A DNA stretch of 64,000 bases, taken from contig CACYCS010000004.1 of NCBI GenBank assembly GCA_902773005.1, forward strand, positions 9,378 to 73,377, in the 5' to 3' direction. Every line of letters begins with the position of its first letter. Position 1 is the stretch's first letter. Shown here piece after piece: positions 3,824-64,000 of this stretch. Origin of the DNA: an uncultured Erysipelotrichaceae bacterium (lineage in GTDB: Bacteria; Bacillota_I; Bacilli_A; RFN20; CAG-826). The translations under genes and the position numbers were made by a program. The notes under the pieces are model-generated. The model was not told the origin of the DNA. It did not search any database and saw nothing but the letters and a program-made list of their open reading frames with translations.

Positions 3824-3861
3824 AACCTCCTGACGTTTCTATTTGCCTCAGGAGGTTTTTC
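3824..3861 (+). terminator. Rho-independent terminator
   Basis: aacctcctga / tcaggaggtt stem followed by a T run after the GH16 genes. Confidence 0.8.
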
Positions 3862-3904
3862 TTCACCCTTTGCGCACCGCAAAGCAAACAACTATCATTA
3901 CCAT

Positions 3905-4525
3905 ATGACTGAACTAGAGAAAATGCTTTCCGGAAAGATCTATGACTGCGCCGATCCGGAGATTGCCGCTTTGCAGCGGAAACTGAACCTATTGAACGAG
4001 GAATGGAACGCTACGCCATCTTCTTCGCCTAGGAAACAAGAGATATTCAAGGAGCTTGCCCCAAACATCCATCCGTCTTGCTTCATCCGCTCACCGGTTT
4101 ACTTCGATTATGGCTGCAACATCTATATGGGCGAGAATAGCTATGCGAACTACAACCTCACGGCACTAGACGTATGCCCGATCTATATCGGCAAAGGCGT
4201 CCATATCGGAAGCGGGGTATCCCTCATCACCCCATTGCATCCCCTAGATGCGGAAGACCGTGCGATATACCGCAATGAGAAAGGCGTGCTAACCGATCAA
4301 GAATATGGCGCCTCCATCACGATCGGCGATCATTGCTGGATCGCATCCAATGCCACGATCCTCCCAGGCGTGACCATTGGGAAGAATTCGATCATCGGCG
4401 CGGGCTCCGTCGTCACCCACGATATCCCAGAAGGCGTCATTGCCGTCGGCAATCCAGCAAGGATACTTCGCAAAATCACCGAGCAGGACAAACTGAAATA
4501 TCACCCTGAATTATTCGCAGAATAA
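3905..4525 (+). CDS. Sugar O-acetyltransferase (maltose/galactoside acetyltransferase family)
   Basis: MTELEKMLSGKIY Mac-like N-terminus, FDYGCNIYMG, hexapeptide repeats IGKNSIIGAGSVVTHDIP, VGNPAR. Confidence 0.9.
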   Translation: MTELEKMLSGKIYDCADPEIAALQRKLNLLNEEWNATPSSSPRKQEIFKELAPNIHPSCFIRSPVYFDYGCNIYMGENSYANYNLTALDVCPIYIGKGVHIGSGVSLITPLHPLDAEDRAIYRNEKGVLTDQEYGASITIGDHCWIASNATILPGVTIGKNSIIGAGSVVTHDIPEGVIAVGNPARILRKITEQDKLKYHPELFAE

Positions 4526-4623: not shown

Positions 4624-6450
4624 ATGGAAAAGAAGAAGCATATTGCATTTTGGATTTTATTCCCCATTGGGTTTCTGATTCTCGCCGCTATTGCGGTGTT
4701 CATTTTGGATCTAACCAATGGCCCACTTGCATTGTTCGTCATTGAACTGATTATCCTCGCTGCCCTCGCGGTCACTAGCATATTGCTCATCAATCGCAGA
4801 GCGATCCTCCGCGCGGTTCCTTGGGCCGTCGCCTTCATGATGACCGTCGTGCTCTGCATGTTTTCAAAGCCCATTGTCCGCGAGACCAATGCGACATTGA
4901 CGGACAAATTTGAGACGACGAACGCCTTGACGCTCGCTAATGGCGAAGTCAAAGGCGCATACACCGCCGACAAAGAAGTCGAAGTCTACGCTGGCATACC
5001 ATATGCAAAAGCCCCAGTAGGCGAGCTCCGCTGGAAGGAACCGCAACCCATCGAAAACTGGGAAGGAGTTAGGGATTGCACGAAATTCCACGCGAAATCG
5101 ATGCAGCCTGGATCGAATCCCATCATGAACTCTTTGGTCGAGATCTATGCCCAAAAGTCCTGGCATCCCACTTTCAGAACCGGAACCATCGAGCCGCGGA
5201 GTGAGGATTCCCTATACCTTAATATATGGCGCCCAGCCAAATTCACTGGCGAATTGCCAATTCTAGTCTATATCCACGGTGGCTCTTTGACTTCTGGCTC
5301 AAGCGCCTTCAGCGACTATAACGGCGAGACCTTCGCCCGCAATGGGGTTATCACGATCACCATCGCATATCGCTTAGGCGTGTTTGGCTATTTCGCCCAT
5401 CCTGACCTCAAGGCGGAATCGCCTAACGGCACGACTGGCAACTACGGCCTGCTCGACCAGATTCAAGCCCTGAAGTGGGTCAATGAAAACGCATCCTACT
5501 TCGGCGGAGACAAGAATAACATCACGATCGCTGGCGAATCCGCGGGCAGCTCAAGTGTCTCCGCGATCTGCGCTTCGCCACTAGCCAAAGGCTTATTCCG
5601 TCGCGCAATCGGCGAATCTAGCTCTGTCGTCGCACCCCATGTCCCGCACACGTTCAGGACGCTTGATAAAGCCTATGAAACCGCGGACAAGATCTTGAAA
5701 GAGCAGAATTGCTCCTCCATTACGGAGTTGCGCAAGGTTTCTGCAGAGAAGCTCGTCGGTACCGCATATAGCAACGACTGCATGGTCGTAGACGGTTATG
5801 CGCTTCCGAAGATGCCTTACGAGATCTATCAGGACGGGAATAACAACGAGGAGGCACTACTGAACGGCTACAACGTCAAAGAAGCCGATGCCTTTGTCGT
5901 TCCGAAGTTCCTCACTAGCCCCACGAACAAAAACAATATCCGCGAGAGGTTAGCCGATTATTTCGACGCCGAAGCAGCGGATCAGTTCTTAGAAAGGTAT
6001 CGCGACCGCATCGAAAGCGATGCCTTTGGGACCTTCAATGACATCATTTCCCATTACTGGTTCATGCAACCCCATTTCGAGTGGTCGACCATCGCTCGCG
6101 ACAAAGGGGTGAACGTATACCGCTATCAATTCACGAAGGAGAACGGCTATTACGGCACATACCATTCGGGCGAAATGATCTATTGCTATGGAAACGTCGG
6201 GCGTGCGCACCAATTCGCCTATGACGATAGCGATTATGCGCTATCGAAAACAATGGTCAGCTATTGGACGAATTTCGCGAAGACGGGAAACCCTAATGGC
6301 GATAGCCTTCCGATTTGGAGCCCATGGGATCCCGTTAGTAATAAACTGCAGGAACTAGGAACGAACATTGGCCCAATCGAGGAGCGAGCGCTGCCCTCAT
6401 ACAAAATCCTGAGCGATTACGTCGCAAGGAAGGAAGCATCACAAAAATAA
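4624..6450 (+). CDS. Carboxylesterase type B (pNB-esterase-like), membrane-anchored
   Basis: GIPYAKAPVGELRW, SEDSLYLNIW, HGG oxyanion motif, GESAG nucleophile, YWTNFAKTGNPN; three N-terminal TM segments. Confidence 0.9.
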   Translation: MEKKKHIAFWILFPIGFLILAAIAVFILDLTNGPLALFVIELIILAALAVTSILLINRRAILRAVPWAVAFMMTVVLCMFSKPIVRETNATLTDKFETTNALTLANGEVKGAYTADKEVEVYAGIPYAKAPVGELRWKEPQPIENWEGVRDCTKFHAKSMQPGSNPIMNSLVEIYAQKSWHPTFRTGTIEPRSEDSLYLNIWRPAKFTGELPILVYIHGGSLTSGSSAFSDYNGETFARNGVITITIAYRLGVFGYFAHPDLKAESPNGTTGNYGLLDQIQALKWVNENASYFGGDKNNITIAGESAGSSSVSAICASPLAKGLFRRAIGESSSVVAPHVPHTFRTLDKAYETADKILKEQNCSSITELRKVSAEKLVGTAYSNDCMVVDGYALPKMPYEIYQDGNNNEEALLNGYNVKEADAFVVPKFLTSPTNKNNIRERLADYFDAEAADQFLERYRDRIESDAFGTFNDIISHYWFMQPHFEWSTIARDKGVNVYRYQFTKENGYYGTYHSGEMIYCYGNVGRAHQFAYDDSDYALSKTMVSYWTNFAKTGNPNGDSLPIWSPWDPVSNKLQELGTNIGPIEERALPSYKILSDYVARKEASQK

Positions 6451-6478
6451 CGCAGGCGTGTATTCGAATTCGCCTGCG
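6451..6478 (-). terminator. Terminator hairpin (T-tract on minus strand)
   Basis: cgcaggcg / cgcctgcg stem preceded by aaaaataa on the + strand. Confidence 0.6.
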
Positions 6479-6484
6479 CCAAGG

Positions 6485-6758
6485 CTATTTGATGATGACG
6501 TTTCTGCGCCTAGGATCGATGACCTTGATCTTAGGCTTTTCTTTTGTGCGCACAGCCGAGATAACGATTTGATCTTTATCGCATTGGACGTGGAACGCGG
6601 TGAAGCTATGGTTCCCTTCCTGCAATGGGGGATTCTCCGTCGTCCAATAGATACGAGGATTCAAATTTCCCTTCGTTCCATCAAGAAATTGCTTTAGCAA
6701 CTCCTTGAAAGCCGTTTCCGGGTCGCGCGAAGTGAATCGGATATTTTCAAAAAATCAT
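6485..6758 (-). pseudogene. Possible small gene with a +1 frameshift in a T6 run near its start
   Basis: Minus strand reads ATG ATT TTT TGA. Removing one T joins this to the open frame ending at TAG 6485 (~90 aa). A minus-oriented terminator follows. Confidence 0.3.
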
Positions 6759-6794
6759 TTTGGTCTAGAATATTTGGCCGAAAGGAGTCAATCA

Positions 6795-7250
6795 ATGAAA
6801 AAACTAAAAGATCTCGGGCCAATCATCTTCATCGGAGGCGTCGTCGTTGCGATTATTGCCTTTGTCCTCTTGTTGGCGACCCCAGCGGTTGTCGCTGGCA
6901 ATGATTATGTCAGCGTGAACATGAGCGGAACCTTGGTAGTTTTCGGCAATGAGTATGCTAATCCGGTCGGCGTAGCGCTTGCAGCTTGGATCCTTCTGCT
7001 CATCGCCCTTGTCGCCGGTTTGGCAGTCATCGTCCTTGATCTGCTCAAGATCAAGCTTCCCGCCATTGCTTTCCTTGGCATCAAGCTATTGGTCGCCGTT
7101 CTCTTCTTGGTCGCCGGTATCCTCGTATTCACTGTCGCCTCTGCGGTGGGTGGCGGGTCGCTCGGCGCTGGCTGGCTCATCGGCGGAATCCTTCTCATCC
7201 TCGGATTCGTTGCCTGTGTTTGCCCTGTCGTCCTTAACTTCGTCAAGTAA
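6795..7250 (+). CDS. Hypothetical 4-TM membrane protein
   Basis: SD AAAGGAG, ATG 6795, four hydrophobic segments, followed by a terminator. Confidence 0.8.
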   Translation: MKKLKDLGPIIFIGGVVVAIIAFVLLLATPAVVAGNDYVSVNMSGTLVVFGNEYANPVGVALAAWILLLIALVAGLAVIVLDLLKIKLPAIAFLGIKLLVAVLFLVAGILVFTVASAVGGGSLGAGWLIGGILLILGFVACVCPVVLNFVK

Positions 7251-55009: not shown

Positions 55010-56236
55010 ATGATCTACGCTTGCTTTCACGAGAAAACCTCACCTGATACCGCTCTATGTTTTGGTGGTGAGTTTTCTGAAGCTTCGCTCCTTGGCAATA
55101 GCTGTGTTCCGTCCGAGCGTGTGCTTTCTATTCTGAGGCTCGAAAACATTGGCCTCTATGATGGTTCTTTTGCGGTCAACGATGTTGAATTGCTAGGAGA
55201 AGAGAAACCGTCGATTAAGATCATCGACACCTCGTTGCCACTAAGAAGAGATGTTGAGACAGGCGATTACGCTCTGAATGCAGCCCTAGATAAATTCGCG
55301 AGCGAGAACGGCATCCGCCATGCTGTCGCATATCGTTTTAGAACGATCATACAGATGGTTTACGCGGACCTTCAAACCAAACCCTTATATCTGCTTCTTG
55401 ATCTAGGGGGCTCCCGTCCTGAAGAACAACTTTTGGTAACCGAATTCATAGCAAAGGTTTTCTTGCTCGGCCGAATTTTGATACACGCCCCTTCTATTTC
55501 GATGAATTACCACGCCGATTTAGTGCCGCTTTCGCGCATCGTCGCCGATGTCTTTGTTCCCAAGCAACCCGCCTTGGACATGGAACATCTTGCCTTTGGC
55601 GCATCTAGCAACGAAATCGCTGGTATCAAGCCTTCCGTAGCGGGTGAGATTGCTCAAAAAGAAGTCCCGAATGAAACGAATCCAGCCAAGGATCCCTTGG
55701 CCGCTCAACCGCAGCGAGAGTACAAGGTAGAAAGCAATCCGTCCATCTTTGAAAATGAGGAGAAACCCGCAAAACGAGGATTCTTTGGGAAAATTGCAGC
55801 GTTTTTCAAGAGAATTCCAGCCCCTACGATGGACTTGATTCTCAACATACTGTTCGCGGTTTTGTTCACGGGTCTTGCTATTGCGGTCTGCCCGATTAAC
55901 TTCGCCTTCTCTTCCGAGGGTTCCAGCACGATGCTTGTCGTATGCATTATCGTTTGCTTCGTGTTCCTGATTATGGCTCAGATTCCTATTGCTTCGATCT
56001 ATCAGGCCGACAAGGAACAAATGAACCCATTCAAAGCGAAACCCTTCATGATTGTGGGCGTCATATTCTCGTTAATAGGTATCCTTGCTGGAGTACTTAT
56101 GATGGTTATCGGCAAGTCCAAGGGTTGGGATTCCTCCAAAGCGCTCCCGTTCTATATCGCTTACTTCCTTTATCCGGTCTTCCTTACCGCTTACACTGCA
56201 GTTACCGTCTATCGAAAAACCCACCCGAAGAAGTAA
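55010..56236 (+). CDS. Hypothetical protein with C-terminal 4 TM
   Basis: 408-aa ORF: soluble N-terminus, linker, four TM. Confidence 0.75.
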   Translation: MIYACFHEKTSPDTALCFGGEFSEASLLGNSCVPSERVLSILRLENIGLYDGSFAVNDVELLGEEKPSIKIIDTSLPLRRDVETGDYALNAALDKFASENGIRHAVAYRFRTIIQMVYADLQTKPLYLLLDLGGSRPEEQLLVTEFIAKVFLLGRILIHAPSISMNYHADLVPLSRIVADVFVPKQPALDMEHLAFGASSNEIAGIKPSVAGEIAQKEVPNETNPAKDPLAAQPQREYKVESNPSIFENEEKPAKRGFFGKIAAFFKRIPAPTMDLILNILFAVLFTGLAIAVCPINFAFSSEGSSTMLVVCIIVCFVFLIMAQIPIASIYQADKEQMNPFKAKPFMIVGVIFSLIGILAGVLMMVIGKSKGWDSSKALPFYIAYFLYPVFLTAYTAVTVYRKTHPKK

Positions 56237-56309: not shown

Positions 56310-56810
56310 ATGGAAGTCGCGAAGACTCCGATCATCGTCACCATTGCAACCATTGCTGGTTCTGCCCTCGTTTTCGTTTTGGCCCGCGTCGCTCAGCGCA
56401 TCTATCGAAGCGAGGATTTTGTCCTGTATGCCAGAAAGATGGTCCTGCTAGAGAAGGATGTTCTCAAGCTTCAAATCTTCTTCGATAACGATACGAAAAA
56501 GGAAAAGGAATTCCGTGCGCTTTGCCTATATGGAGTAAGCGGCAAATCCTTCACCAAGATCACCGAGGTCAAAGACCTTCCAATCGCCTCCGACCATTCT
56601 TCGGCTTTCATCGAGTCCCGCCACGGATCATACGATTTCAAAGTTCCTCCATATACGAAATTTCAGGCAGTCGTGGATCTTCGATTGCCCGAGGAGATGA
56701 ACTACGATTCCTATAAGCTTGGATGCGTGTCCGAAAAAGGGACGCTTCTTCTAGCGGATTTCGATATTCGAAGCGATGCCAATCAAGAGATCGTCTTCAA
56801 GCGTTCCTAG
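56310..56810 (+). CDS. Hypothetical membrane-anchored protein
   Basis: N-terminal TM then a beta-rich domain. Confidence 0.65.
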   Translation: MEVAKTPIIVTIATIAGSALVFVLARVAQRIYRSEDFVLYARKMVLLEKDVLKLQIFFDNDTKKEKEFRALCLYGVSGKSFTKITEVKDLPIASDHSSAFIESRHGSYDFKVPPYTKFQAVVDLRLPEEMNYDSYKLGCVSEKGTLLLADFDIRSDANQEIVFKRS

Positions 56811-57538
56811 TCTTCTTTTCGTTCGTCACTGCCATCACCATAAGTTTCGCGGAATCTTGCCGCGAAGGATGGCTTTTCGCCATTCATAGTCAAATGGCTG
56901 ACATCCCCAAAGGTGGAAATCCTCCAGCTTGCGATGCCTTTCTCACGCTCCTCGGTTGAGAGAATGGTTACTCCAGTAGGCTGACAAACGAACCCGTGCC
57001 ATAGCACCATGGGACTGCAATTGATGAGGTGCGAAAGCAGTACGCACATGACGCCAAAATGGCAAAAGAGGACAAGCGTGTCTCTATTTTCGCGGACTAC
57101 CGCATAATTCCGCCCATTTCTTTGGTACCCATTTTCAAGCAGCAATTGATCAAGTCCGTTGATCCTCTCATCGTATAGCGGCTTCAGGTCCGGGCTGTTC
57201 CTGAAGATGTCGTTCTCCATCCAGGTATCGATGGAATAGAATCGCGGATCTTTCGTCCATTCGCTCGGTAGCCAATCCCATGTCACATCCGATTGATCCT
57301 CGTGTATCGCGGTGGAATCAAATTCCCTAAGCCAAGCGAGGGTAGTGGGGGTTAGGCTTGTTTTGGATAAGCCGATTTTCGCTGTAAGGGCTGCGCGCCC
57401 CAAAGGAGAGGCGTAAGCGCGGTCGATCTTCTCGCCTTTTAGACGTTCGGCAAGAAGAGTTGCTTCCTTGATCCCTCTCTCTGTCAGGGAATCGTGTTCG
57501 TAATCTGGGTCGCCATGGCGAATGATGATCAGTCTCAT
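56807..57538 (-). CDS. Histidine phosphatase superfamily protein
   Basis: IIRHGDPDY, SPLGRA..TA, LREF, FCHFG. Confidence 0.9.
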   Translation of the reverse strand: MRLIIIRHGDPDYEHDSLTERGIKEATLLAERLKGEKIDRAYASPLGRAALTAKIGLSKTSLTPTTLAWLREFDSTAIHEDQSDVTWDWLPSEWTKDPRFYSIDTWMENDIFRNSPDLKPLYDERINGLDQLLLENGYQRNGRNYAVVRENRDTLVLFCHFGVMCVLLSHLINCSPMVLWHGFVCQPTGVTILSTEEREKGIASWRISTFGDVSHLTMNGEKPSFAARFRETYGDGSDERKED

Positions 57539-57607
57539 GACCCCTATTATACTCGGGTGAGCGACTTGCTATGGAATAGCACTTCGAATTTGAGTACGAT
57601 ATCTCTA

Positions 57608-58732
57608 ATGAAAATCGCGATCGCCGGATGCGGATATGTGGGGCTGTCCATCGGGACGCTTCTTTGCGCTCGCCACGATATTTCGTTTGTCGATATCAGC
57701 CAGTCCAGAATCGAGCAGCTTAAGTCATTTGTTTCGCCGATCCGCGATCCGGAGATAGAGCGCGTCTTTGCGGATCGCCCCCATTTCCTCGCCACCACGG
57801 ATCCATCAATTGGATATTCGGCCGCTCGGTTGATCTTCATCTGCGTTCCAACCGATTATTCCGAGGAAGCGGGCAAATTCGATACTTCGAAAATCGAAAG
57901 CGCGTTAGAGGCGATCGACCGCGTCAATCAAGACGCCGTCATCTGCATCAAATCCACGGTACCCATTGGATACACGAGGACTTTGGCGACCAAATATCCT
58001 GGGCATACCGTTTTGTTCAGTCCAGAGTTCCTTCGCGAAGGCAAGGCGCTTGAAGATAACCGCAACCCCTCTAGAATCGTCGTTGGACATGGAAAGGCGG
58101 AAGAAACCGCTAAGAAGGTTGCGGACCTATTGAAGGAAAACGCATGCACGTCCCCCACGGTTTTGATATGCGATTACGAAGAGGCGGAATCGATCAAGCT
58201 CTTTAGCAACACCTACCTTGCGATGAGAATCGCTTTCTTCAATGAACTTGATACCTATGCCAAAACCAAAGGCTTTGACGCCAATACAATCATCAAAGGC
58301 GTGAGCCTAGACCCGCGAATTGGCGATTTCTATAACCATCCATCCTTTGGCTATGGAGGATATTGTTTGCCAAAAGACACCAAGCAGCTCTTATCCAGCT
58401 ATGGGGATATTCCAGCAGATTTAATTAGCGCCACCATCGAAAGCAACAAAGACAGGAAGCGGTTTATCCTTAGGAAAGCCAAAGAGCTTGCCAAGGGTAA
58501 GAAAGTCGCGATAGACCGCCTTATCTCCAAACCCGGAAGCGACAACTACCGCCAATCCCCTGCGGTTGAGATATTGGAGGCACTTGTGGAACAAGATTAC
58601 GACGTTTACCTGTATGAGCCCTTGGTCAATGAAGCTTTATTTCATGGCGCGAAAGTCATTAAGGACTATGAGGAGTTCAAGGAACTTGATGCGTTGAAGC
58701 TCAGGCCACTGCTCAACGAAATCGGTTGGTAA
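57608..58732 (+). CDS. ugd: UDP-glucose 6-dehydrogenase family
   Basis: IAGCGYVGLS, CVPTDY, IKSTVPIG, SPEFLREG, KLFSNTYLA, GYGGYCLPKDTKQL. Confidence 0.92.
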   Translation: MKIAIAGCGYVGLSIGTLLCARHDISFVDISQSRIEQLKSFVSPIRDPEIERVFADRPHFLATTDPSIGYSAARLIFICVPTDYSEEAGKFDTSKIESALEAIDRVNQDAVICIKSTVPIGYTRTLATKYPGHTVLFSPEFLREGKALEDNRNPSRIVVGHGKAEETAKKVADLLKENACTSPTVLICDYEEAESIKLFSNTYLAMRIAFFNELDTYAKTKGFDANTIIKGVSLDPRIGDFYNHPSFGYGGYCLPKDTKQLLSSYGDIPADLISATIESNKDRKRFILRKAKELAKGKKVAIDRLISKPGSDNYRQSPAVEILEALVEQDYDVYLYEPLVNEALFHGAKVIKDYEEFKELDALKLRPLLNEIGW

Positions 58733-59905: not shown

Positions 59906-60619
59906 ATGTTGCCTGAACAATCTTTGAACATCTATTGCGATGAATCCTGCCATCTGATTGGCGATAGCTCCAGAGTCATGGGGCTAGGCGCGATCGGATG
60001 CCTTGAATCCCAAAAAGAAGCGGTGGTGGATATGATTCACCGCATCAAGGACTATTACGGATATAGCTTCGCTGAAATCAAATGGTCCCAGATCACCACG
60101 AACCAAGTTCCGATGATCAAAACGTTAATCGACTACTTTTTCAAGTGCCCCTATCTTTCCTTTCGCGCGATCATCATCCCCAATAAGCGCGAAGTCGCGC
60201 AGGACAAAACGGTCGTGCAGTTCGACGAGTGGTATTACAAGATGTACTACCAGCTGCTTATCGTGATGCTTGACCGCTACCCCCGGGGCAACAACATCTT
60301 CATCGACCGAAAGGACACCCAAGGCAAAGCCAAGATCAAAAAGCTCTTCGAGATTCTTTCGCGAGCAACCAATGGCGAGGAGGCGGTGGATGGCATCGTT
60401 GAAATCGATTCCCATTGCTCCGACTTGCTTCAGGTAAGCGACCTATTTACCGGGATGCTCGTTTTCCATAAGCGCGGGCTATCCAAACGAGGGAATCCCG
60501 CGAAGGTCGCGGTGCTTAACCATTTGCTTACCAAGGTGTCGGTGGATTACAGCACGCCGCCAGACGAGAAAAAGTTTAATTTGTTCTATTGGGAGGGTGC
60601 ATCTCATGTTCGAGGATGA
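59906..60619 (+). CDS. DUF3800-family protein (RNase H-like acidic motifs)
   Basis: NIYCDESCHL, EIKW, YYKMYY, IFIDRKD, LLQVSDL (QxxD), KFNLFYW. Confidence 0.82.
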   Translation: MLPEQSLNIYCDESCHLIGDSSRVMGLGAIGCLESQKEAVVDMIHRIKDYYGYSFAEIKWSQITTNQVPMIKTLIDYFFKCPYLSFRAIIIPNKREVAQDKTVVQFDEWYYKMYYQLLIVMLDRYPRGNNIFIDRKDTQGKAKIKKLFEILSRATNGEEAVDGIVEIDSHCSDLLQVSDLFTGMLVFHKRGLSKRGNPAKVAVLNHLLTKVSVDYSTPPDEKKFNLFYWEGASHVRG

Positions 60620-61190
60620 TTACGTGTTTTTCCGCAAATACTTGGCAAATCTTAATCGGTTTAACCTTTGCGGAACTACTTATGCCCCTTTTGTTTCGCA
60701 AGATAAAGACCTTTGGAACCTCATGGATAGGCCTGACATCTTTTGGCATCTAGTGACCTCTTCCAAGACGAAGGATTGCACGAACAATTCACCTATTGTC
60801 CCTTGCTGCAACACCCTTGAGATGTCGGGGTGCGACGAGATATCCGAAGCAAATGACGTGCTTCATTGCATCTCGCGCGTGCCTTGCCCTTATCGCGCGA
60901 GAGGGATGAGATCCCTCAAATTGATCATGGATAGCTTGGCTTATGGCAATGTACACGGCATCTCAGCTGCGCTATACAAAGATCAGTCAGGCGCGAAGAA
61001 GATGGTGATCCGCCGCAAATGCGGATGCCTCGATTACGTTTGCATCTTCAAGTGCTACCCATACCGATATGAGGCCAAAGGAACGGTTAGGCCGATCAGG
61101 CTTATCACCGCGTTCCCGCTTGCCTATCGATCGATGATCAGAAAGTTCGACAAGATCATCGGCGAGCAGGGCTTAACGATCGAGCAATGA
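60606..61190 (+). CDS. Cys-rich hypothetical partner of the DUF3800 gene
   Basis: 14-nt overlap with the upstream gene, SD GGGAGG; FWHLVT and LITAFP motifs; 10 Cys. Confidence 0.75.
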   Translation: MFEDDYVFFRKYLANLNRFNLCGTTYAPFVSQDKDLWNLMDRPDIFWHLVTSSKTKDCTNNSPIVPCCNTLEMSGCDEISEANDVLHCISRVPCPYRARGMRSLKLIMDSLAYGNVHGISAALYKDQSGAKKMVIRRKCGCLDYVCIFKCYPYRYEAKGTVRPIRLITAFPLAYRSMIRKFDKIIGEQGLTIEQ

Positions 61191-61351
61191 CCTTTCGCTT
61201 GCCTCGTAGTGGATAATTCGCAGGGGTCGTGGATCTATTTTCGCTTTCCCAAAGTGGCTCAAAGGACAAATATGCCAAATCGAAGTTTCACGCATCCCCA
61301 TAAATGGGATATAATCCCAATCGGTATCAAACGAAAGGAACCAATATCAAA

Positions 61352-62059
61352 ATGATCAAATTAGTGCTGATCCGCCACGGCCAGTCCGAATGGAACCTCA
61401 AGAACCTCTTCACCGGCTGGACCGATGTCGAGCTTTCCGAGCAGGGCGTCCGCGAAGCTCACGAAGCCGGCAAGCTTCTCAAAGAAAAGGGCTATACCTT
61501 CGACGTCGCTTTCTCCTCTACCCTTAAGCGCGCCAACAACACCATGGACTTCGCTCTTGGTGAGATGGGGCTAGACAAGCTTCCGAAGTTCTATTCCTGG
61601 AGACTCAACGAGCGTCATTACGGTGCTCTTCAGGGCTTGAACAAAGCTGAATCCGCTTTGAAGTGGGGCGATGAGCAAGTCCATCTCTGGAGGCGTTCCG
61701 CCGACGTTCCTCCTCTAGCGCTTACCAAAGATGATGAAAGGTGGCCTGGCAACCAAAAGAAGTATCAGGATCTTATCGCCAAGGGAGAGATGACCCTTGA
61801 TGATTGCCCATTGACCGAGTGCCTTATCGACACCGCCAAGCGCGTCAAACCCTATTGGGACGAGAAGATCGCGCCGGAGATCAAAGCAGGCAAGAAGGTC
61901 CTCATCGCTGCCCATGGCAACTCGCTTCGCGCCATTGTCATGATGCTTGAGAATCTCACCCCTGAGCAGATCGTCTCCGTCGAAATCCCGACCGGCAAAC
62001 CGCTTGTTTATGAGCTTGACGAGAAAGACCTCAAGGTTCTCAACAAGTATTACCTCTAA
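61352..62059 (+). CDS. gpmA: 2,3-BPG-dependent phosphoglycerate mutase
   Basis: [47 protein letters not shown]. Confidence 0.97.
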
Positions 62060-62082
62060 TATTTGCTAAGACAATATTCTCT

Positions 62083-62110
62083 AAAAGTCGCGAACTGATC
62101 GCGGCTTTTT
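62083..62110 (+). terminator. Rho-independent terminator
   Basis: aaaagtcgcga / tcgcggctttt. Confidence 0.8.
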
Positions 62111-62128
62111 ATCATTCAGCCATTCTTC

Positions 62129-62266
62129 AAAGTATGAAGGAGTATGAAAGAATCATAAAAGTATGAAAGAGTATGAAAGAATCCTAAAAGTATGAAGAAG
62201 TATGAAAGAACTTGAAAAGTATGAAGGAGTATGAAAAAATTTTAAAAGTATGAAGGAGTATGAAAG
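62129..62266 (+). repeat. Tandem array of five 29-bp units with ten AGTATGAA boxes
   Basis: AGTATGAA starts at 62131, 62141, 62160, 62170, 62189, 62199, 62218, 62228, 62247 and 62257. Confidence 0.97.
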
Positions 62267-62276
62267 GAACGACGAT

Positions 62277-63329
62277 ATGAAGGACTACCAGAATAACCCA
62301 TTTACCTTGTCTTTCGGCAACAAGCCAATCAAATACATCGCGAGGGTCAGCGAGAAAAGAGAGCTTATTGAAAACATAACGAACGACCCTCCGCTATCTC
62401 ATTATTATGTGATTACTGGCGTGCGTGGTTCAGGAAAAACAGTTCTTTTGACGTCGCTTTCCAAATATTTTGAGAATCTCGATGACTATGTTGTAGTTGA
62501 ATTGAATCCTTCGGACGATTTAAGAGAATCCCTTGCTGCCAAACTCTATTCTAAATGCCTTGTGAAGCGGCTGTTTGTAGAAAAGACGCTGAGCCTTTCC
62601 TTCACAGGCGTCACGTTCTCGCTTAGCGGTAAGAACCCTGTCTTTAATATCGATGATCTTTTGGACAGAATGTTCCAAGAGCTTGAGAAACAAAATAAAA
62701 AAGTGCTCGTTCTAATTGATGAAGCCACGAACAGTAATTACCTAAAACAATTTGCCTTATCGAGCCAAATCCTCATTAGACGAGATTATTCCTTATTCGT
62801 TGTTATGACTTGTCTATATGAGAACATCAGCGCAATTGAAAGCGAGAATAATCTGACCTTTTTAGCCAGAGCGCCTCGCGTTGTTGTTGCTCCTCTGAGC
62901 ATTCCGGCAATCGCGAATTCCTATTACGAGATATTCGATATCGATAATAATCAGGCAATCGAACTTGCAAAGCTCACCAAGGGATACGCTTTCGCTTTCC
63001 AGCTTCTTGGCTATCTTTTCTTTGAGAGCCACGATAAAGCAATTACAGCATCATTACTAAATGAGTTTGATCAGTACTTGGAAGAATTCGTATATCAACA
63101 AATATGGAAGGGTCTTTCACAAGTCGAAAAGAAAATACTCAAGAGCTTTGCTTCGGATGGACCGGTTCGAGTTTCAACAATTATGGAAAGTGCCGGGATG
63201 AAAAAGGAGTCCTTCTCAAAGTATAGAGACAGGTTGATAAAGAAAGGCATTGTATTCGCACCATCGCATGGCGAGCTTGCATTTACTTTGCCCCGTTTTG
63301 AAGTGTTTGTCTCAACGAGACTGTACTAA
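62277..63329 (+). CDS. AAA+ ATPase with C-terminal winged-helix domain
   Basis: NPFTLSFG, Walker A GVRGSGKT, Walker B VLVLIDEA, TKGYAFAFQLLG, wHTH-like FSKYRDRLIKKGIV. Alternative in-frame start at 62250. Confidence 0.88.
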   Translation: MKDYQNNPFTLSFGNKPIKYIARVSEKRELIENITNDPPLSHYYVITGVRGSGKTVLLTSLSKYFENLDDYVVVELNPSDDLRESLAAKLYSKCLVKRLFVEKTLSLSFTGVTFSLSGKNPVFNIDDLLDRMFQELEKQNKKVLVLIDEATNSNYLKQFALSSQILIRRDYSLFVVMTCLYENISAIESENNLTFLARAPRVVVAPLSIPAIANSYYEIFDIDNNQAIELAKLTKGYAFAFQLLGYLFFESHDKAITASLLNEFDQYLEEFVYQQIWKGLSQVEKKILKSFASDGPVRVSTIMESAGMKKESFSKYRDRLIKKGIVFAPSHGELAFTLPRFEVFVSTRLY

Positions 63330-63499
63330 AAAACGCCGAACTCGTCCGTCCAGCGCACTTCCTTTCTGCATCGGCAGATGGAATGTCATTATCATAATTG
63401 AATTTGGGAATTTGACAATAGGATTTCCAGCACCGACAGATAGATTTTCGGTCTGTTTATCGTCTGTGCCATAACGCTTTGCAGGGCTCGATCATAGAA

Positions 63500-63527
63500 T
63501 TGACTGTTCGCCCCCCAAACCTATAAT
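63500..63527 (+). promoter_or_regulatory. Sigma-A type promoter
   Basis: TTGACT-16 nt-TATAAT upstream of SD AGGAGG and ATG 63577. Confidence 0.75.
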
Positions 63528-63576
63528 AAAACAAACGGTTGCTTGCTTATGGGGTTGTAGGAGGCAATTTATCTTT

Positions 63577-64000
63577 ATGAAAAGGATTGCGATTTGTCTA
63601 ATTTCGAGTTGCTTTTTGGCTTCGTGCTCGACGCCAGTAACGATTTCAAGCTCGAACCCGACATCCATCTCAGCTGAAAAGGATATATCCATCACGATCT
63701 CGGTTGCTGACGAGGCTGAGCACAGACTTGCTAAGACCATGGTTTCCGATTTCATCGCTTCCAAAAACTATGGATTTGACGTTGAAGTGCAGTTTTTCCC
63801 TGCCTATGCCGAATCACACGGCAAGTCCGCCTTTGAAGAAGCTGACATTCTCTATGCTGACGTCGAGGCCATCTCAGCTAACATAGACGCAGGCATTGAA
63901 TTCGAACCGATCGATGCCAAAGCGTACCAAGACACTGAGTTCTATGCGGAATCTGAATTCAAGGAGGATGGGACATACTTTTGTTATCCTTTCTCAGTTG
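63577..64000 (+). CDS. Lipoprotein, possibly an extracellular solute-binding protein (3' truncated)
   Basis: MKRIAICLISSCFLASC lipobox; frame open to the window end (...ADILYAD...EDGTYFCYPFSV); absent from the supplied ORF track. Confidence 0.75.
   Translation, partial: MKRIAICLISSCFLASCSTPVTISSSNPTSISAEKDISITISVADEAEHRLAKTMVSDFIASKNYGFDVEVQFFPAYAESHGKSAFEEADILYADVEAISANIDAGIEFEPIDAKAYQDTEFYAESEFKEDGTYFCYPFSV

Follow-up and report, generated by a model that had tools for sequence, protein, structure and literature searches.

The window analysed here, a stretch of 64,000 nucleotides (nt) from a contig of an uncultured Erysipelotrichaceae bacterium (CACYCS010000004.1), contains near its end an array of short direct repeats directly upstream of a gene for a P-loop ATPase with a predicted C-terminal winged helix-turn-helix (wHTH). 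This array is probably an operator through which the ATPase, acting as an oligomer on DNA, regulates its own gene. The case is built on three lines of evidence: phased arrays of this kind precede nearly all close homologues of the gene, the sequence of the repeated box varies together with the predicted recognition helix of the adjacent protein, and a σ70-like promoter is built into the array.

A phased array of perfect boxes in the window

The array consists of five 29-bp units with two boxes AGTATGAA each, 10 bp apart (positions 62124-62266; Tandem Repeats Finder (TRF), period 29, 4.9 copies); like the other elements of the unit described below it lies on the plus strand. The sequence AGTATGAA occurs exactly ten times in the window, always on the plus strand and always between 62131 and 62264. 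Boxes 1 to 5 (62131-62138, 62141-62148, 62160-62167, 62170-62177 and 62189-62196) and boxes 6 to 10 (62199-62206, 62218-62225, 62228-62235, 62247-62254 and 62257-62264) are all exact matches, and their start-to-start distances alternate between 10 and 19 bp. None of 100 dinucleotide-preserving shuffles reached a count of ten (mean 1.35, maximum 5). When the box pair was searched for with as many as three mismatches allowed, the window gave seven matches as compared to 0.29 expected, all of them within the array. Differences between units are restricted to the 2-nt spacer between boxes and a linker of about 9 nt. Ten perfect boxes with alternating 10- and 19-bp spacing and variation confined to the linkers had been described in an initial annotation of the window, and this description was borne out.

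A degenerate sixth unit is located over the start codon (62274-62293, with TATGAAGGACTA at 62276-62287), so that the spacing between successive units is 29, 29, 29, 29 and 27 nt. As the sixth unit follows unit 5 at a distance of 27 and not 29 nt, an ATG within unit 5 (62250) shares the reading frame of the gene. A-class relatives have an intact unit that provides both the ATG and an N-terminus of the form M-x-E-Y-E. The array had been said to end at the Shine-Dalgarno sequence of an open reading frame (ORF) richer in AT than its neighbours. Both statements hold: a plausible Shine-Dalgarno-like AAAGGAA, read from the sequence, is present at 62263-62269, 8 nt before the ATG, and the GC content is 0.37-0.42 over positions 62000-63400 compared to 0.46-0.55 in the 6 kb upstream.

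Two other interpretations of the repeats were rejected. An RNA element would be at odds with the Rfam scan of positions 61900-63700, which gave no match at E up to 1, and with the fold of 62120-62290, for which z was 0.08. A series of mini-ORFs or repeated Shine-Dalgarno sites was dismissed on the grounds that GGAG lies 1 nt from the ATG of the box and is missing from the other box classes. Inspection of the DNA flanking the module for terminal repeats or target duplications revealed nothing convincing.

The array is a trait of the protein family

The family of the gene product comprises 2009 cluster representatives at E up to 1e-3, and 306 when E is limited to 1e-30; there were 567 matches in contigs from one genome per species. 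It is found mostly in Bacillota. For comparison, the best 80 homologous genome loci (40-66% identity; 45 from Lachnospiraceae) were used, with the start codon mapped for each; where needed they are cited by L numbers. Arrays were scored as self-similarity at a lag of 29 in the 250 nt upstream of the gene, with a threshold of at least 12. Seventy of the 74 scoreable regions, the window included, carried a 29-bp-period array, as opposed to two of 1924 control windows drawn from these loci, one of which was an N-run and the other a two-copy chance repeat. Arrays upstream of homologues, for which the initial annotation had proposed to look, are thus present in 70 of 74 regions, and the phased array is a trait of the family, common to relatives in numerous gut bacteria.

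Chaining of boxes, in which only gaps near multiples of 10 were allowed, identified at least four boxes in 69 of the 74 regions, with a median of six and a maximum of ten that is common to the window, L053 and L063. The 388 gaps between boxes included 232 of 10, 96 of 19 and 27 of 9 nt. Because the chaining was restricted in this manner, the unrestricted spacings of exact 7-mers provide the unbiased view, and these were again 10 and 19. The boxes are placed on a lattice of about 29/3 = 9.7 bp; its third site has no box in the window but has one in some relatives.

Identity between units of the same array (120 units from 52 loci) was 0.69-0.93 in the box flanks and 0.25-0.45 in the linkers; the six core box positions that served for detection were left uncounted. 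Conserved flanks next to diverged linkers indicate selection on the boxes rather than fresh duplication, and recent slippage was rejected as the source of the arrays. Arrays of near-identical genes differed by clean insertions or deletions of 10 nt, corresponding to one whole box (L071 versus L073, 3860-4010), or of 20 nt, corresponding to two whole boxes (L060 versus L064/L068, about 3840-3990). Box number is plastic, and the phase is kept.

Two loci showed individual features. In L008, about 110 nt upstream of the automatically assigned start (4132), the reading frame that follows an intact two-unit array appears to be one base short relative to L005 (ATGAAAGGAATCC against ATGAAAGGAAATCC); this copy looks like a frameshifted gene or an assembly error. 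Just downstream of the family gene, L012 possesses a second, different direct-repeat array (5176-5242; CTAGAAGT six times, period 23 = 11+12, TRF score 102), about 355 nt upstream of a gene for a 498-amino-acid (aa) paralogue (5597-7093) that matches ATPase_2 with 37.1 bits. Other branches of PF01637 may have arrays of their own.

The adjacent gene encodes an ATPase_2 protein with a predicted winged helix

The gene extends from 62277 to 63329, stop codon included, and codes for 350 aa. It had been annotated as a stand-alone AAA+-wHTH gene starting at 62278. A P-loop protein of the ATPase_2 type with a wHTH was confirmed; the start was one base off and opened a stop-riddled frame. An in-frame alternative ATG is the one at 62250 in the last unit, which would yield 359 aa; a database protein of 359 aa and 99% identity is annotated from this upstream ATG and retains the same nine extra residues.

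The window protein matches PF01637 (ATPase_2) with 37.1 bits (cut-off 33.2; E 4e-9; residues 41-158) and also AAA_14, and the PF01637 annotation is precomputed on most homologues. In an alignment of 28 sequences, G48, R50, G51, G53, K54 and T55 of the Walker A motif GVRGSGKT (residues 48-55; 62418-62441) were invariant, as was D148 of the Walker B motif VLVLIDE (residues 144-149; 62706-62723), in which E149 was at least 90% conserved. Hidden Markov model (HMM) matches place the wHTH at residues 279-337 approximately (63111-63287). For the window copy itself these matches, at residues 279-327, are below threshold (TrmB, 19.1 versus 25.6; RuvB_C, MarR, HTH_45). The domain is clear at the level of the family, where HTH_24 was found in 18 of 29 members (best 1.5e-7), MarR in eight and TrmB in five. 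The best PDB match of the family profile is the wHTH of the BlaI/MecI repressor (1p6r, E 0.006); Lrp/AsnC and MarR proteins come next. The C-terminal 80 or so residues are accordingly predicted to form a wHTH, whose recognition helix would correspond to residues 309-324 (KKESFSKYRDRLIKKG; 63201-63248) according to HMM alignments, not a structure.

Searches beyond the family were less informative. A PDB sequence search with the whole protein gave matches at the P-loop level only, an ESM Atlas search with homologue P0074 returned the family itself, and no paralogue of the gene was found in the window. Longer fused relatives were not found either, which is weak evidence, and slightly longer proteins carry no informative domain. 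Scores for other classes of P-loop proteins fell short of the respective cut-offs: ORC-CDC6-like (PF24389), 13 bits versus 27; nSTAND3, 21.2 versus 27.2; nSTAND5, 18.1 versus 34; NACHT, 13.5 versus 26.7; and the NCBIfam antiphage model DS41_1, 18.5 versus 370. The best PADLOC model was mad8 with 22.6 bits, in the P-loop region only. No match was obtained to Orc1/Cdc6 in NCBIfam, to DnaA (Bac_DnaA ATPase and domain IV HTH) in Pfam or NCBIfam at E up to 1, or to plasmid Rep families in Pfam.

Box type covaries with the predicted recognition helix

The sequence of the box varies by clade, and the 10/19 lattice is constant. The window and L001-L009 have the box AAAGTATGAA, L010, L012 and L033 have AGTGTGAA, most Lachnospiraceae have AAGTTATA(A/T)A, and the Butyrivibrio group has AAGATATAAA; ACAGTAAA, ACTATAAA and GTTGTAAA represent further classes, with loci not individually assigned. 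A tree of 68 proteins requires 14 changes of box class (minimum 8; shuffled mean 37.6), a low number that is expected from linkage alone.

More specific information came from single alignment columns. Residue 312, the third residue of the stretch aligned to the BlaI/HTH_24 recognition helix, shared more information with box class than any other column, for all classes together as well as for the contrast of TTATATA versus TTATAAA, where the mutual information reached 0.85 of 0.99 bits (runner-up column, 0.49). All 25 TTATATA loci have a hydrophobic residue at this position (L in 24, M in one), while 18 of 19 TTATAAA loci have Q, K, E or S; the single L belongs to a mixed array. When supported, independent pairs differing in the box were taken from a tree built without columns 309-316, box and residue 312 changed concordantly in five out of five (sign test, p = 0.0625). 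Moreover, columns 312 and 310 ranked first and second of 348 for residue sharing given box sharing (0.63 and 0.38; median 0.02) in pairs of 55-85% identity, which are non-independent, a flaw common to all columns. In the window, these two candidate specificity positions are encoded at 63204-63206 (residue 310) and 63210-63212 (residue 312). Box type thus tracks the predicted recognition helix of the adjacent protein. A covariation of this sort had been put forward in the initial annotation as a check, and together with the arrays of the family it supports the notion, also voiced there, of a minimal unit made up of a protein and its binding array.

A σ70-like promoter lies within the array

A promoter scan of the window detected a −35-like hexamer TTGAAA in the linker of unit 3 (62212-62217) and, 17 nt further downstream, a −10-like hexamer AAAAAT (62235-62240), to which the end of box 8 and the linker of unit 4 both contribute and which is preceded by TG at 62232-62233. 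This consensus match at unit 4 (TTGAAA-17-AAAAAT) would place the start of transcription near 62247-62250, with three units upstream of the promoter, one inside it and one at the predicted start site. The hexamers derive from linkers, so the 'variable linkers' are the very parts that carry the promoter. Given the predicted transcription start, a leaderless 359-aa form of the protein initiated at 62250 is conceivable. The B-class relatives L010 and L012 have the same promoter geometry as the window.

Across the family, the best σ70-like match overlapped the array in 57 of 67 loci, lay upstream of it in nine and was absent in one. Many of these promoters are perfect (TTGACA-17/18-TATAAT), with the first box pair filling the spacer and its second box making the −10 hexamer. 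In 38 of 67 loci, a TTGACA sequence (at least 5/6) precedes the core of the first pair by 11-13 nt, and none of 194 later pairs has one at this position, so that the rest of the array is situated downstream of the predicted start. An array around a promoter has the layout of an operator, and the near-consensus promoters point to a repressor. The initial annotation had offered three functions, namely an autoregulatory filament, a cryptic origin, and a selfish or defence module. Owing to the promoter within the array, the first of these fits best; the origin was left without support, and for a selfish or defence role there are weak hints only.

A terminator-like hairpin with a T-run was observed on the minus strand directly after the stop codon (63333-63356). 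A terminator for the gene on the plus strand was not flagged in the promoter/terminator scan of the window.

The unit is self-contained and occurs in unrelated contexts

The DNA of L050 and L055 is 85% identical over a segment that begins precisely at the −35 hexamer and stops 11 nt beyond the stop codon; elsewhere within 9 kb the two loci have nothing in common. The unit alone is similarly shared between L010 and L033 and between L021 and L025. Promoter, array and gene are a self-contained unit found in unrelated contexts; neither a recombinase nor a terminal repeat nor a target duplication was found. Box pairs of the locus' own type were found 177 times inside arrays and never outside in 579,062 bases of loci (shuffled-box control, 3). 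No further box-pair target was detected either in the window or in these 579 kb.

A conserved partner gene was not found, as the initial annotation had noted for the window: in an all-against-all clustering of neighbours, the largest cluster covered 12 of about 79 loci and consisted of an ABC transporter whose position and strand varied between loci. The nearest downstream ORFs of 73 loci were mutually unrelated and included genes as different as those for ThrRS, IF3, LacI regulators and glycosidases; 66 upstream ORFs were not scanned. In eight of the 73 loci (L002, L033, L040, L018, L071, L012, L010 and L017), the nearest downstream ORF encodes an orphan ATPase or a toxin-antitoxin/Abi protein, i.e. 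DUF4143+AAA_14 (three), AAA-ATPase_like (two, one with PDDEXK_9), ATPase_2 (one), AbiEii and ParE, which hints at small variable islands.

In the window, the module is preceded by a His_Phos_1 (gpmA-like) gene (61304-62059). Further upstream are genes for a DUF3800 protein (59906-60616), UDP-glucose dehydrogenase (57494-58729; 3.5 kb upstream of the module) and a second His_Phos_1 protein (56807-57535). The ORFs at 60597-61187, 55010-56233 and 63577-63999 gave no Pfam match at E up to 1e-5. A lactate dehydrogenase gene is also among the neighbours; the nearest named relatives of its product, with 62-66% identity, are from uncultured 'Bacilli bacterium' genomes.

Several copies of the family lie next to or within polysaccharide gene clusters (L048, L064, L016 (also L060 and L068), L081 and L087), and Bac_transf or GT2 genes are located directly downstream of several copies. 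The homologue on the Pseudobutyrivibrio plasmid pNP95 is flanked by genes for O-antigen ligase and glycosyltransferases, and a Collinsella copy follows a GT2 gene; in the window, the UDP-glucose dehydrogenase gene upstream of the module is a comparable neighbour. Between L004 and L009, megablast aligned the two flanks (85% and 79%) and gave no match for the ATPase gene between them, which may diverge faster than its surroundings or may have been replaced.

Distant homologues were searched with tblastn. None was present in 50,697 phage records, and 85 plasmid records contained one, always with less than 60% identity. Twelve distant plasmid loci were examined for upstream repeats in comparison with 663 control windows. 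At three of the twelve, all actinobacterial, the homologue (24-26% identity) was within 3 kb of a ParA-like gene near the start of the record (L083:1-965, L084:5782-6447 and L085:891-1667).

Proposed mechanism

In the following model, DNA binding, its dependence on ATP, the sign of regulation and the geometry of the oligomer are inferred from sequence. The ATPase_2-wHTH protein would read the adjacent array, which is built around the σ70-type promoter of its own gene. One protomer would contact one box of 8-10 bp via the recognition helix (residues 309-324 or so), and two protomers would occupy a box pair with boxes 10 bp apart; pairs would repeat every 29 bp, leaving every third site of the 9.7-bp lattice empty. 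As all boxes have the same orientation, protomers would be arranged head-to-tail in the manner of P-loop/AAA-type oligomers. ATP bound at the conserved Walker A/B site would drive cooperative assembly. Applied to the window, the model predicts a filament over three units upstream of the promoter, one between the −35 and −10 hexamers, one at the transcription start and the degenerate unit on the start codon. By covering promoter and start site it would shut off transcription of the gene, thus closing a negative feedback loop.

Several observations weigh against this model. The window promoter is a weak match (9/12 of the σ70-like consensus), and the three units upstream of it set the window apart from most relatives. 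Four of the 74 upstream regions were below the array threshold: L011 and L040 have only the start-codon unit left, L037 has nothing, and L066 has four boxes at 10/18/10 despite its low score at lag 29. With five pairs, the sign test for residue 312 cannot go below p = 0.0625, and the remaining covariation statistics use non-independent rows. The window protein combines S312 with the box GTATGAA, while seven of eight GTATGAA loci have Y and the S-bearing relatives use GTGTGAA; residue 312 is therefore not a simple one-to-one code. Among the twelve distant plasmid loci, upstream repeats exceeded all 663 controls in only three, two were in the top 5% of controls, and seven were indistinguishable from controls. 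The three positive loci have direct repeats with a period of 9-12 bp just upstream of the gene (pNP95, 36% identity, ATACTAAAG seven times; Lactobacillus crispatus p1, 30% identity, AGTAAAATG five to six times; Clavibacter pCI3, 24% identity, GAGACAA three times). Well established in the Firmicutes branch, the array trait is patchy outside it. Finally, it is not evident what use there would be for a protein that regulates nothing but its own gene, which implies that part of the story is missing.

In a speculative and rather unlikely extension of the model, the unit would be a self-contained, horizontally moving module in which an ATP-driven head-to-tail wHTH filament on a near-consensus promoter acts as a spring-loaded sentinel. 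Titration or dismantling of the filament would release a burst of the ATPase that coats or silences foreign DNA, amounting to a one-gene system for defence or against mobile elements with a one-residue/one-base code. Invading AT-rich DNA, a phage protein or a shift in nucleotides might serve as triggers.

Alternative explanations

The best surviving alternative, though still improbable, is that the protein binds the array and activates its gene, with positive feedback or a bistable switch as the result, or that the array serves mainly as a decoy or titration store. All evidence for binding applies here to the same extent as for an operator, and the three units upstream of the −35 hexamer in the window are in a position typical of activators. 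However, in 38 of 67 loci the first pair is placed between near-consensus −35 and −10 hexamers, and the remaining boxes follow the predicted start. Such a geometry is typical of repression, and near-consensus promoters need no activator.

It is very unlikely that the boxes are read by a host factor or by RNA polymerase, as −10-like or curved A-tract DNA, or that they are neutral products of slippage. The C-class boxes TTATAAA and TTATATA do resemble −10 hexamers, and the array is rich in A-tracts phased at about 10 bp. Yet box type changes between clades within the same host families, travels with the gene and covaries with two residues, 310 and 312, in the predicted wHTH of the adjacent protein, and the boxes GTATGAA, GTGTGAA and CAGTAAA are not −10-like. 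Slippage, if recent, is excluded by linkers that are randomised next to conserved boxes.

A slimmer chance still is given to a cryptic replication origin, in which the boxes would be iterons and the protein an initiator of the Orc1/Cdc6 or DnaA type that melts adjacent DNA. A P-loop protein with a wHTH and phased repeats of the same orientation beside its gene resemble pairs of initiator and origin, and the array is AT-rich. The ParA-like neighbours on actinobacterial plasmids would also suit this idea. In addition, putative initiators of Methanococcales match the Arch_ATPase and Cdc6 models and adjoin predicted origins, according to a review (PMC4009838). Against an origin speak the sub-threshold or missing matches to Orc1/Cdc6, DnaA and Rep families, and the DnaA-box-like sites, of which the window contains five as compared to ten expected, with no cluster and none in the array. 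Furthermore, the module sits between housekeeping genes, in chromosomal contexts that are unrelated from locus to locus, and replicon or mobility genes were not found. The consensus promoter built into the first box pair at most loci is needed by an operator and not by an origin. The term 'iteron' used in the initial annotation is misleading for this array, because the boxes are operators of 8-10 bp on a lattice of about 9.7 bp and not origin repeats of about 20 bp.

Least probable of all is a centromere-like or nucleoid-seeding site, on which a filament would serve segregation or local compaction with autoregulation as a by-product: direct-repeat arrays of about 10 bp over the promoter of the binder's operon are a hallmark of parC-type sites, and ParA-like genes neighbour three of the twelve plasmid loci, but a conserved partner motor or adaptor is missing, most copies are single chromosomal genes, and phage copies were not found.

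Significance and comparison with known systems

'ATP-binding proteins' of the PF01637 type are common, unexplained orphan genes of gut Firmicutes. Nearly every member of the branch studied here carries its own phased operator, and one helix position switches with one base of the box. To judge from these sequence patterns, the family would gain its first testable molecular activity, i.e. sequence-specific, cooperative and probably ATP-coupled DNA binding. The matched proteins and boxes form a natural series for dissecting winged-helix specificity and filament phasing, as well as a compact set of orthogonal repressor/operator parts. The 10/19 lattice, the one-residue/one-base covariation and the restriction of targets to the gene itself would surprise the specialist. 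It is puzzling that a unit which seemingly regulates only itself is nevertheless kept and exchanged across hosts. The initial annotation knew of no description of such an arrangement of array and ATPase gene, and none was found in open-access full text.

DnaA is an ATPase that oligomerises in a nucleotide-dependent manner, has a C-terminal DNA-binding domain, binds boxes of the same orientation about one helical turn apart beside its own gene, and represses itself. The likeness to the unit described here concerns the ATPase with its C-terminal DNA-binding domain and the short direct boxes upstream of the own gene. Unlike DnaA, the window protein does not match Bac_DnaA, its DNA-binding domain is predicted to be a winged helix of the BlaI/Lrp/MarR type, its boxes follow a 10/19 lattice, and neither an unwinding element nor an origin context was found.

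ORB elements, the sites of archaeal Orc1/Cdc6, are longer than the boxes described here and often inverted. Orc1/Cdc6 proteins share with the window protein an ATPase domain, a C-terminal winged helix and repeats adjoining the gene, and some putative archaeal initiators are matched by both PF01637 and Cdc6 models according to the above review (PMC4009838). The window protein differs from them in its ORC-CDC6-like score of less than half the cut-off, in the lack of an Orc1 match in NCBIfam and in the promoter built into its array.

STAND factors of the MalT/AfsR type couple ATP-dependent multimerisation to cooperative binding of direct repeats at promoters. They are activators of at least 900 aa with sensor domains and DNA-binding domains of the LuxR or OmpR type, whereas the window protein has 350 aa and no sensor domain, and the only target within reach is its own gene.

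In the parC/ParR and tubC/TubR systems, direct repeats phased at about 10 bp surround the promoter of the binder gene, and cooperative coating is accompanied by autorepression. The binders of these systems are small ribbon-helix-helix or wHTH proteins without an ATPase domain that need a partner motor, whereas ATPase and predicted wHTH are united here in one chain without a conserved partner. Iteron plasmids (RepA, π, TrfA) likewise have direct repeats immediately upstream of a gene for a winged-helix protein. In contrast to these, the present unit has no Rep match, has boxes of 8-10 rather than 17-22 bp, is located in a chromosomal context and includes an ATPase domain. By these comparisons, the unit appears to resemble DnaA, Orc1/Cdc6, MalT-type STAND and ParR systems in different respects and belongs to none of them.

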